Source: Escherichia phage AV116
Direction: 5' to 3' (one strand)
Sequence record: OR352946.1
DNA length: 64,000 nucleotides
Shown here: piece after piece, positions 32,681-48,356 of the stretch
How the letters are laid out: each line of letters begins with the position of its first letter
How positions within the stretch are numbered: position 1 is the first letter of the stretch
Translations under genes and position numbers: made by a program
The notes under the pieces: generated by a model
What the model saw: the letters and a program-made list of their open reading frames with translations, nothing else
Databases searched by the model: none
Told to the model about the DNA's origin: nothing

Positions 32681-33262
32681 TTATAACAACCCTGTCAAAT
32701 CGTTCCAATGCTTCCGGCATAATGACACATATCTATCGGTATCACCAATTTCAATTTGACTGCCATCTGTAATTGGAAGTCCGTCTTCCGTGACTCTAGC
32801 TACCATTGTGGCCTTTTTACCACAATGACAAACACCTTTAAGTTCAACAAGTTTATCGGCAATAGCCATTAATGCTTGAGAACCTTCAAATAGATTACCT
32901 TTAAAATCTGTTCGTAGTCCATATGCCATTACCGGCACATTGTACACGTCAACAATACGACTAAGTTGATACACCTTTTCAGTAGTTAAGAACTGAGCTT
33001 CGTCAACAAATACACAATGAATATCCTTTTGTGCTGCAGCCCATTTATAAAATTCAAAGATATCCATGTCTTTTGTAATTATATTGGCATCCTGACGAAT
33101 ACCAATACGAGAGACTATTTCACCTTTTGAATCACGAGTATCAATAGCCGGTTTAAGAACTAATACACCCATGCCACGTTCTTTATAGTTATGTGCGGCA
33201 GTAAGTAATGAAGCAGACTTACCAGCGTTCATAGCGGCATAGGTAAAAATTAAACTAGCCAT
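32681..33262 (-). CDS. tk: thymidine kinase
   Basis: 193 aa; P-loop YAAMNAGKS, Walker B VFVDEAQF, C-terminal zinc cysteines (CHCGKKA...CRKH). Confidence 0.95.
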   Translation of the reverse strand: MASLIFTYAAMNAGKSASLLTAAHNYKERGMGVLVLKPAIDTRDSKGEIVSRIGIRQDANIITKDMDIFEFYKWAAAQKDIHCVFVDEAQFLTTEKVYQLSRIVDVYNVPVMAYGLRTDFKGNLFEGSQALMAIADKLVELKGVCHCGKKATMVARVTEDGLPITDGSQIEIGDTDRYVSLCRKHWNDLTGLL

Positions 33263-33271
33263 AAGAGTCCC

Positions 33272-33454
33272 TTATAGTGAATTCACGTAGTCAATGAGTT
33301 CTTGTTCTTTCCTGTCAAATGATTCCAACAATGCTTGATATTCTTCGTCCGTCAAAGGAGCATATTCATCATACGCATTGGTGGCTGCTTGCTCATCCAA
33401 TAGGTCATGGATAAGTTCAAACAGTTTAGTTTTCTCTTCTTTAGTCAATTTCAT
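33272..33454 (-). CDS. hypothetical protein
   Basis: 60-aa acidic ORF. Confidence 0.4.
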   Translation of the reverse strand: MKLTKEEKTKLFELIHDLLDEQAATNAYDEYAPLTDEEYQALLESFDRKEQELIDYVNSL

Positions 33455-33945
33455 TTAGGTTCCCAATCAACAATCACAATTTCTAGTTTAGTGGAATACG
33501 TATCTAAAATCTCTTCGATGACATCCCAGTTTCCACCACCAATACCTGCACCAATTCTTGGCATATAAATTACAGGCTTTGTTATCTTATTCTTTCCGAA
33601 TTCATTTAATTCTATTATACAATTCATTAAAGCAGAGTACTCAAAATTAGGTCCCGGCTCAAACTGTGTATAAAGATTAAAGCAATAAGCTTTATGGGTC
33701 TTAAAATATTTTTCATAAACCGAATAAGTCCCGAGTTTAGACTTGTCTCCGAATTCGGTTTGAAGTTTATCGGCTTCCAGAATTTTTGGATAAGCCTTTG
33801 CTAATTGTCCTGCCACACCAGCGCCCATTGTATGAAAACAATTACACCCGTGAGCAATATTATTACCTTTAGAAAACAGGGCGACAATATCGCCCTTGAT
33901 ATAGTTTTTAATCACTTGCTGCAAGTCCTCTAGTATAAGAGTCAA
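33451..33945 (-). CDS. macro-domain-like protein (putative ADP-ribose binding/hydrolase)
   Basis: 164 aa; HGCNCFHTMGAGVAGQLAKAYP and IGAGIGGG resemble macro-domain glycine-rich loops. Confidence 0.45.
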   Translation of the reverse strand: MTLILEDLQQVIKNYIKGDIVALFSKGNNIAHGCNCFHTMGAGVAGQLAKAYPKILEADKLQTEFGDKSKLGTYSVYEKYFKTHKAYCFNLYTQFEPGPNFEYSALMNCIIELNEFGKNKITKPVIYMPRIGAGIGGGNWDVIEEILDTYSTKLEIVIVDWEPK

Positions 33946-34255
33946 CTAGACGGTCCACCATAGAATTGCATGCCGCCTTATCTTTAGGTTCCGCCACCGA
34001 GCATTCTAATATTTGCCATTTTTTATAGTATCTTTTAATTAAGGTAGACGCCTTGAACCTACTAGACGCCCCATCTTTTTCTCCGTCTTTATACGCATAT
34101 AACAATTTTTGTGAAAAATCTACTTTACACTCTTGACTTTTACCACAATAATCAGACGCCGTTCTGTTTGTATACTCCGTTACATCAGTATATGTAGTAT
34201 TAGCAAGAGCGTTAAATGAAACCAAGCCAACTATTAAAGCCAACATTTTGGTCAT
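33908..34255 (-). CDS. secreted cysteine-containing protein
   Basis: 115 aa; signal peptide MTKMLALIVGLVSFNALA; four Cys. Confidence 0.5.
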   Translation of the reverse strand: MTKMLALIVGLVSFNALANTTYTDVTEYTNRTASDYCGKSQECKVDFSQKLLYAYKDGEKDGASSRFKASTLIKRYYKKWQILECSVAEPKDKAACNSMVDRLVDSYTRGLAASD

Positions 34256-34802: not shown

Positions 34803-35261
34803 CTAGATTTTAATCACTGCTTTAGAAGCTTTTCCTGGTAGTCGTTTACTGTTAATAATAGCCATTCTACATTGAAGAGTCTTCATTTTGAATGCCGGAT
34901 TTTCGCGACAAACTGTAAGTCCTAACCAAAGATTTCCGTCAGTTATTTCTAAACGGCCTGGGCGATATTCGACACCTTCGACAAAATCTTCATCAACATC
35001 CGGACGTGCCGGCATTGATAAAAATTCTGCAACTTCTTTAACGTGATTTTTTACTTTATGAAATAATTCAAAAACGTAATTCTCATCTATTTCTCTCTGG
35101 ATGGCACGATCTAAGAGATGTTGAGAATACTTGATATGAAAGCCTGGTAGTCCAAGAGACTTTGCAGCATCTTTTATACCGGCATTTATTTTGCGGAACT
35201 CCGTTTCAAAGATTCGACGGAGTTTATTACGGCGGATAAAAACATCCGAATTGATAGTCAT
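34803..35261 (-). CDS. regB: RegB endoribonuclease
   Basis: 152 aa; close match to T4 RegB (FIRRNKLRR.FE.EFR...HLLDRAIQREIDE.YVFELFHK). Confidence 0.93.
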   Translation of the reverse strand: MTINSDVFIRRNKLRRIFETEFRKINAGIKDAAKSLGLPGFHIKYSQHLLDRAIQREIDENYVFELFHKVKNHVKEVAEFLSMPARPDVDEDFVEGVEYRPGRLEITDGNLWLGLTVCRENPAFKMKTLQCRMAIINSKRLPGKASKAVIKI

Positions 35262-47497: not shown

Positions 47498-47574
<77 letters not shown>

Positions 47575-48284: not shown

Positions 48285-48356
48285 TGGCCCTGGCTGGTTT
48301 CGATCCAGCTACCTATCAGTTATGAGCTGACAGCTCTCCCATTGAGCTACAGGGCC
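48285..48356 (-). tRNA. tRNA with CAU anticodon (Met, or Ile2 if lysidine-modified); CCA not encoded
   Basis: Manual cloverleaf: acceptor GGCCCTG/CAGGGCC, D-stem GCTC/GAGC, anticodon arm GTCAG-CTCATAA-CTGAT, T-arm GCTGG-ATCGAAA-CCAGC. Confidence 0.85.

Follow-up and report, generated by a model that had tools for sequence, protein, structure and literature searches.

A stretch of 64,000 nucleotides from Escherichia phage AV116 (sequence record OR352946.1), referred to here as the window, encodes on its minus strand a small macrodomain protein within the vs–tk gene cluster. Sequence comparison and analogy with phage T4 make it very likely that this stand-alone, 154-amino-acid protein is an ADP-ribosyl-glycohydrolase, orthologous to T4 Tk.4 (AdfM), that would erase DarT2 marks from phage DNA. 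The pattern of its active-site residues suggests that the chemistry is probably of the SCO6735 type and not of the DarG type.

Gene Limits and Genomic Context

The original prediction was made on a mechanical ORF (33451..33945, minus strand) that runs for 164 amino acids from a TTG codon. The ORF is present on this strand, but 33945 marks only its mechanical limit, and the gene starts at the GTG at 33915 (Table 1). That GTG aligns with the ATG start of T4 Tk.4, and homologs of the protein begin at the equivalent of residue V11 of the TTG ORF. In the annotation of phage JK42, the macro CDS starts with an identical 8-nt overlap with vs. The position of the T4 ATG, the JK42 overlap, and the conserved GAGGA therefore define a gene of 154 codons, and the TTG start was rejected on comparison with T4 and JK42. 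The first 10 codons of the TTG ORF fall inside vs and are no part of the macro gene.

Table 1. Position of the macro gene, its neighbors, and the elements discussed in the text
Feature	Coordinates	Strand	Remarks
Macro-domain gene, ortholog of T4 tk.4 (adfM) by sequence	33451..33915	-	GTG start, 154 aa plus TGA stop
5' extension of the TTG ORF	33916..33945	-	Outside the macro gene; overlaps the 3' end of vs
Shine-Dalgarno GAGGA	33926..33930	-	10 nt 5' of the GTG; kept in T4 and JK42
vs, valyl-tRNA synthetase modifier	33908..34255	-	Upstream neighbor; 3' end overlaps the macro start by 8 nt; JK42 and T4 annotation
tk.2-like small gene (DUF7438)	33272..33454	-	Downstream neighbor; Pfam DUF7438 E = 7.8e-16; JK42 note 'tk.2 gene product'
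tk, thymidine kinase	32681..33262	-	Pfam TK E = 7.3e-57
Strong RNA hairpin followed by a U-rich tail	33878..33896	-	Codons 7-13; terminator-like match
H22-G-C-N25 motif	33841..33852	-	N25, conserved active-site Asn; H22, conserved His
Glycine-rich loop 1, HTMGAGVAG	33808..33834	-	Residues 28-36; putative ADP-ribose-binding loop by alignment
N80-L-Y-T-Q84 motif	33664..33678	-	Gln84 at the catalytic-Lys position of DarG (K80) and TARG1 (K84)
Glycine-rich loop 2, PRIGAGIGGGNW	33526..33561	-	Residues 119-130; putative phosphate-binding loop by alignment

Over the surrounding ~5 kb, identity is 98-99% with phages of Mosigvirus (RB69-like T-even) such as AV118, APCEc01, and JK42. At the DNA level, the macro gene itself is 100% identical to its AV109 counterpart, and about 140 Mosigvirus records match it at 95-99%. 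Read along the minus strand, the window has the order regB, vs.1, vs, macro gene, DUF7438 (tk.2-like) gene, tk, and the stop of the macro gene overlaps the start of the DUF7438 gene as ATGA. The corresponding order in T4 is regB, vs.1, vs, tk.4, tk.3, tk.2, tk.1, tk; T4 tk.3 and tk.1 are missing between the macro gene and tk in the window. The gene had been described as lying downstream of tk, which holds in plus-strand coordinates alone; by transcription it lies upstream. The succession vs, tk.4, small genes, tk was found in T4, JK42, teqhad, ECD7, and a Jiaodavirus. Linkage of vs and tk.4 was seen again in Tequatrovirus, Krischvirus, and Jiaodavirus, and in the Tegunavirus phiR1-RT the macro gene is kept upstream of tk. 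A promoter scan around the macro gene returned fewer sigma-70-like sites than shuffled sequence, and no promoter is claimed.

Two features of local variation were observed in passing. Most relatives in Mosigvirus have ~410 bp, comprising two small genes, between the macro and tk.2-like genes, and the window lacks this segment; the junction of the deletion (33458-33462) alters the final codons of the macro gene. When T4 is compared with teqhad, identity is about 100% in vs and tk.3, and the DNA identity of the tk.4 body falls to 40-60%; the T4-type and teqhad-type alleles are 58% identical.

The 5' end of the gene also contains a strong RNA hairpin (Table 1), with a free energy of -13 kcal/mol (z = -3.2). 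Over a 25-nt block that encloses it, the sequence is the same in T4, JK42, and teqhad. In the 44%-identical gene of ECD7 the hairpin is kept, with a G-U to A-U change, and it is gone in phiR1-RT and a Jiaodavirus. The record of phage fPS-65 labels the position 'terminator', and an Rfam scan of the whole window returned two tRNAs only, with no match at the hairpin. Judged by the comparison of T4 with teqhad, tk.4 acts like a swapped cassette, with its left boundary right after the hairpin.

A Macrodomain Fold

The protein matches the Pfam Macro profile (PF01661) with E = 1.9e-6 and 28.2 bits, which exceeds the gathering cut-off of 22 bits, over profile positions 2-117 of 118. It also matches PHROG 335 (E = 1.1e-66). 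Searches of solved structures with the single sequence retrieved the macrodomains Bt_1257 (1.8e-10), Poa1p (1.4e-8), and SCO6735 (6.7e-5), as well as TARG1 and DarG (each about 1e-3). A profile built from 56 homologs raised the scores over those of the single-sequence search, giving 7e-17 for Bt_1257, 3.5e-15 for TARG1, 1e-13 for SCO6735, and 3e-13 for DarG.

An AlphaFold2 model computed from the alignment of the 56 homologs has a mean pLDDT of 94.6 and a pTM of 0.90, and its six strands and five helices alternate as in an alpha/beta/alpha fold. When the model was compared with the PDB using Foldseek, the top matches were TARG1 (E = 1.6e-10), Poa1p (6.6e-10), DarG, Bt_1257, and SCO6735, all with a probability of 1.00 and with E = 1e-10 to 1e-7. 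Altogether, 138 PDB chains were matched at E <= 0.001, and the top 50 were macrodomains or macrodomain-based designs. The original prediction of a macro-domain-like protein is thus confirmed by sequence, Pfam profile, and predicted fold, and the check it had proposed, carried out here as structure prediction with profile and Foldseek searches, gave a strong match to the macro fold. By sequence and model, the product appears as a single-domain macrodomain protein of the ALC1/TARG1-like class.

The two best fold matches, human TARG1 (OARD1) and yeast Poa1p, share with the window protein both glycine-rich loops and the conserved His. Poa1p is a small-molecule enzyme, an ADP-ribose 1''-phosphate phosphatase, and its presence among the closest matches in sequence as well as in fold counts against a role as a DNA eraser. 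By this token, the phage protein might clear NAD-derived metabolites and not macromolecular marks, either as an ADP-ribose-1''-phosphate phosphatase or as a deacetylase of O-acetyl-ADP-ribose. Database labels agree with such a function. Many GenBank records call the gene 'macro domain protein', and most read 'phosphatase' or 'Poa1p-like'; PHROG 335 is named 'phosphatase', the RefSeq T4 record reads 'A1pp phosphatase motif', and JGI calls homologs O-acetyl-ADP-ribose deacetylase. These names, however, go back to 'A1pp', as the macro domain used to be called, and not to assays. Of the residues mutated in deposited Poa1p structures, His23 and Ser30 align with His22 and Thr29 of the window protein, and Phe152 falls in the poorly aligned C-terminal part; the His22/His23 match does not discriminate, because this His is common to the whole class. 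Poa1p, whose substrate is a small molecule, has Ser at the position where the phage family has an invariant Gln84. To our knowledge, T-even infection includes no Tpt1/KptA step that would produce Appr1p. The T4 ortholog has, moreover, a specific DarTG2 phenotype (bioRxiv 10.1101/2025.11.20.689424), and we consider a small-molecule function very unlikely.

Orthology to T4 Tk.4 and the DarTG2 Phenotype

The macro protein aligns with T4 Tk.4 over 153 amino acids with 84% identity and 94% positives. Because this identity is gapless and the vs/tk synteny is shared, the gene is identified by sequence as the Mosigvirus ortholog of T4 tk.4 (adfM). The two agree in length class (154 versus 155 amino acids), position between vs and tk, Shine-Dalgarno sequence, 5' hairpin block, and active-site residues; they differ in the start codon, which is GTG in the window and ATG in T4.

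DarT2 ADP-ribosylates thymidine in single-stranded DNA, which blocks replication. DarG2 reverses the mark by means of its macrodomain, and a second domain binds the toxin. In earlier work, resistance to DarTG2 persisted in T2 and T4 without adfN, and in T4 without adfA and adfN together. The resistance of the double mutant predicts a further factor, and the adfM result fits this expectation. In a 2025 preprint, tk.4 was the single significant hit when a T4 transposon library was grown on DarTG2 cells, and a clean tk.4 knockout made T4 sensitive to DarTG2 (bioRxiv 10.1101/2025.11.20.689424). The authors rename tk.4 as adfM, for anti-DarT factor Macrodomain, and point out its structural similarity to the DarG macrodomain. 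The evidence is genetic alone, in preprint form, and from it the authors infer, without showing, the enzymatic removal of ADP-ribose from DNA (bioRxiv 10.1101/2025.11.20.689424). Our literature search found no biochemistry on Tk.4. The anti-DarTG2 phenotype has been demonstrated for the T4 copy only, and by analogy the window protein would be expected to confer the same protection. An eraser that counters an ADP-ribosylating host defense, as had been proposed, is supported by the 84% identity to T4 Tk.4, by the shared gene position, and by the sensitivity of the tk.4 knockout.

The proposal had a second arm, that the protein might tune the phage's own ADP-ribosylation, and for this we found no support. 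T-even phages encode three ADP-ribosyltransferases (Alt, ModA, and ModB), and a writer–eraser pair acting on their marks on host proteins or RNA would make sense as a design. All three enzymes, however, modify arginine, and arginine-ADPr is handled by another enzyme family. The characterized ALC1/TARG1-like relatives use other linkages: they act on T-ADPr, U-ADPr, Glu/Asp-ADPr, and phosphate-end ADPr, and the accessible portions of the sources on them report no arginine activity. Erasure of the phage's arginine-linked marks by a macrodomain of this class is therefore unlikely. The macro gene is also not located beside alt, modA, or modB, and the available part of the preprint reports a tk.4 defect with DarTG2 present only (bioRxiv 10.1101/2025.11.20.689424). 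Taken as the main function, tuning of the phage's own marks seems to us highly improbable.

Glycine-Rich Loops and Active-Site Residues

Both glycine-rich loops on which the prediction had been based are real, and in alignment they match the pair of ADP-ribose-binding loops in TARG1. Loop 1 (HTMGAGVAG) was aligned to MGAGIA of TARG1 and GWGKGF of Bt_1257, and its G33 is invariant. Loop 2 (PRIGAGIGGGNW) was aligned to PRIGCGLDRLQW of TARG1 and PRIGCGLAGGTW of SCO6735. In these alignments, the MGAG and PRIGAGIGGG segments match both glycine-rich loops of TARG1, Bt_1257, and SCO6735. Within loop 2, P119, I121, G122, and G124 each occur in 119 of the 120 sequences (the remaining one has a gap) and W130 in 118; G122 and G124 correspond to SCO6735 Gly126 and Gly128, respectively.

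Conservation is equally high in the remainder of the pocket. N25 is present in 119/119 homologs and H22 in 117; alignments equate N25 with SCO6735 Asn27 and PhiKZ AdfM N23, and H22 with SCO6735 His24. N80, Y82, and Q84 are invariant in 120/120 homologs, as is Asp49. Gln84 stands where DarG and TARG1 have their catalytic lysine, and the profile alignment places it opposite SCO6735 Gln85. The Lys84/Asp125 dyad of TARG1 becomes Gln84/Gly126 in the window protein. This Lys-to-Gln mapping was obtained from HMMER profile and MAFFT alignments, in which DarG was represented by the M. tuberculosis and T. aquaticus macrodomains. A MAFFT alignment of seven reference macrodomains misplaced the Gln of Bt_1257 and SCO6735 by a few columns, and the HMMER profile alignment was used for both.

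Comparison with DarG, SCO6735, and PhiKZ AdfM

DarG provided the sole NCBIfam and PADLOC matches of the macro protein, and in each case only the macrodomain part was involved. NCBIfam NF048014 (DarG) scored 31.8 bits against an equivalog cut-off of 250, over profile positions 4-148 of 338, and the PADLOC DarG profile was matched at positions 4-145 of 329. DarG (PDB 5M31, 5M3E, 5M3I) belongs to the same macrodomain class as the window protein and, judged from the T4 ortholog, the same toxin is countered. In contrast to DarG, the window protein has Gln84 in place of the catalytic Lys80 (FPTKxHW motif), its 154 residues include no C-terminal DarT-binding domain, and the gene is flanked by vs and the DUF7438 gene with no darT beside it. 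Membership of the DarG family was rejected on the missing lysine, domain, and adjacent toxin gene. On sequence, the protein would be described as antitoxin-like, yet no DarG.

SCO6735 of Streptomyces coelicolor (PDB 5E3B) and Bt_1257 (2FG1) have Gln at the catalytic-Lys position, as does the window protein, and all three have the locking Asn, the conserved His, and the Gly-x-Gly. Bt_1257 is the best PDB sequence match of the window protein; identity to SCO6735 and Bt_1257 is only about 20-27%. A trait of the SCO6735/Bt_1257 subclass is a mobile loop ~5 residues longer than that of DarG and TARG1. The corresponding loop of the phage family, which follows the Gln, is 6 residues shorter than that of Bt_1257 and as long as that of TARG1 and DarG. 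Of two DNA-positioning lysines in SCO6735, Lys34 corresponds to Ala32 of the window protein, and Lys89 has no counterpart, as it falls in the loop segment that the window protein lacks. SCO6735 is also the product of a chromosomal, DNA-damage-regulated gene, whereas the gene in the window belongs to a phage. The phage protein thus shares the Gln and Asn of the subclass, and full membership was rejected on loop length and both lysines.

The functional data for SCO6735 bear directly on the shared residues. SCO6735 rescues DarT toxicity and is faster than DarG at stripping DNA of the thymidine-ADPr that DarT makes. On DarT-modified DNA, its Q85A mutant is inactive, N27S is nearly inactive, and G128E is weakened; Gln85, Asn27, and Gly128 map to Q84, N25, and G124 of the window protein. 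The mechanism proposed for SCO6735 is water-mediated, with Gln85, locked by Asn27, positioning the distal ribose. From these correspondences, we place the protein in the ALC1/TARG1-like class and regard chemistry like that of SCO6735 as its most likely mechanism.

PhiKZ gp104 (AdfM), from a chimallivirus, is a DarG2-like, phage-encoded single-domain macrodomain that counters DarTG2, as T4 AdfM does. In vitro it clears DNA of DarT2 marks, and it also rescues the toxicity of DarT2 (Cell Rep 2026, PMC13309987). An alanine mutant of its active-site Asn, N23, the equivalent of N25 in the window protein, was among the proteins assayed (PMC13309987). The two phage proteins differ in other respects. 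The BLAST match between them is local and spans 23 residues only, PhiKZ AdfM carries a DarG-type FPTKDNWR lysine motif where the window protein is of the Gln type, and PhiKZ AdfM enters the phage nucleus, a structure that T-even phages lack. The lysine motif of PhiKZ therefore suggests separate recruitment of another macrodomain subtype, and two distinct subtypes seem to have been enlisted by phages against one and the same toxin.

Discussion

The macrodomain assignment is correct, and it was already known through T4 tk.4/adfM; about 41% of myoviruses have macro domains. In the mechanism that we propose, the protein would be made from the vs–tk gene cluster during infection and would bind the ADP-ribose that host DarT2 has put on thymidine of single-stranded phage DNA. 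Gln84, fixed in place by Asn25, would orient the distal ribose so that water-mediated cleavage can occur, replacing a catalytic lysine, and hydrolysis of the base–ribose bond would give back DNA that can be replicated. With its DNA restored, the phage would escape the abortive defense of DarTG2. Such a protein would be an orphan antitoxin, equivalent to the macrodomain of DarG without the DarT-binding domain and with no toxin gene alongside. The fold, the orthology and synteny with tk.4, and the pattern of active-site residues are shown by the present analysis; we infer the catalytic action of the window protein on DNA and the timing of its expression. Because the Lys of DarG and TARG1, the Asp of TARG1, and the Lys34, Lys89, and long loop of SCO6735 are all absent, activity on DNA-ADPr is not directly readable from the sequence.

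Protection could also be achieved mainly by stoichiometric binding and blocking of DarT2, with no need to hydrolyze the mark, and toxin binding is how AdfA and AdfB work. DarT is inhibited through interaction with SCO6735, DarG, or TARG1 even when these are catalytically dead, and the canonical catalytic Lys is missing from the window protein. The whole ADP-ribose pocket (Gln84, Asn25, and both Gly loops) is, however, invariant across 120 homologs, which fits an enzyme and not a binding surface under arms-race pressure. The window protein likewise has no counterpart of the DarT-binding domain of DarG, and PhiKZ AdfM acts catalytically (PMC13309987). We therefore regard toxin binding as an improbable main mode of action. 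Since SCO6735 and DarG inhibit DarT by binding as well, protection by an eraser of the kind preferred here could still be partly noncatalytic.

More speculatively, and with considerable doubt, T-even AdfM might represent a third mechanistic type of thymidine-ADPr hydrolase, one that has the Gln of SCO6735 without its long loop or DNA-clamping lysines and that was recruited independently of the Lys-type AdfM of chimalliviruses. Its substrates might then be wider, perhaps taking in uracil-ADPr on RNA and Glu/Asp-ADPr on protein, and the cassette-like replacement of alleles between identical flanks in T-even genomes might reflect matching to different host toxins.

As a discovery, the present finding adds little, as the T4 ortholog already has a named anti-DarTG2 role. 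What the residue mapping suggests is a Gln chemistry like that of SCO6735 in T-even AdfM, as opposed to the DarG-like AdfM of PhiKZ. In practice, the gene may help to predict which therapeutic T4-like phages would escape E. coli that carry DarTG2.

DNA Missing Downstream of the Macro Gene

Approximately 410 bp present in the JK42 locus (L001 2965..3374) are missing from the window. This DNA comprises two small genes, one of them tk.3-like, and where present it separates the macro gene from the tk.2-like gene. In the matches to AV118, APCEc01, and most of the close relatives, ∼415 bp is extra relative to the window. Because the deletion junction falls within the last macro codons, the C terminus of the encoded protein (…DWEPK) is unlike that of the relatives that carry the extra DNA. 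The 5-kb region was matched without the extra DNA in G2285 and JM17; in AV109, NRG-P0074, JM10, and WFK, the match extends to the extreme end of the macro gene.

Features located in the window (L001, JK42 locus)
Feature	Window position	Strand	Basis or remark
Deletion junction	33458..33462		Last codons of macro gene
Hairpin, macro gene codons 7–13	33878..33896, tail to 33868	-	Folding energy and cross-phage comparison
vs.1, 180 aa	34252..34794	-	JK42 counterpart L001 4169..4711
True regB, adjoining vs.1	34803..35261		Pfam REGB_T4, E = 6e-69
tRNA-Arg(UCU)	47498..47574	-	Rfam
tRNA-Met(CAU)	48285..48356	-	Rfam

Structured RNA and Neighboring Genes

The GC-rich codons near the 5′ end of the macro gene form a strong stem-loop, AGGGCGAU-AUU-GUCGCCCU (-13 kcal/mol, z = -3.2), followed on its 3′ side by GUUUUCU. 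A 25-nt block around the hairpin shows no differences in T4, JK42, and teqhad. In the ECD7 gene, which is 44% identical, the structure is retained with one pair changed from G-U to A-U, and the hairpin has been lost in phiR1-RT and a Jiaodavirus phage. A "terminator" is annotated at the equivalent place in the record of Yersinia phage fPS-65. The hairpin may act as an attenuator or stabilize the mRNA, or it may mark a recombination boundary. The two tRNA genes were the only Rfam matches at gathering level in the whole 64-kb window.

The vs.1 product, which had no Pfam match at E ≤ 0.001, is named "endoribonuclease RegB" in the JK42 record and an SLT transglycosylase in others. The JK42 label looks like a misannotation.

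Allelic Variation of tk.4

The segments around tk.4 in T4 (L002 2700..3800) and teqhad (L003 200..1300) were compared. The two phages are ∼100% identical in vs, the initial ∼30 nt of tk.4, and tk.3, and DNA identity drops to 40–60% across the body of tk.4. Within Tequatrovirus, tk.4 has the behavior of a swapped cassette. The allele in the window is of the T4 type, and the window protein is 84% identical to the T4 tk.4 product and 58.6% identical to that of teqhad. The cassette pattern would be consistent with the replacement of alleles under selection in an arms race.
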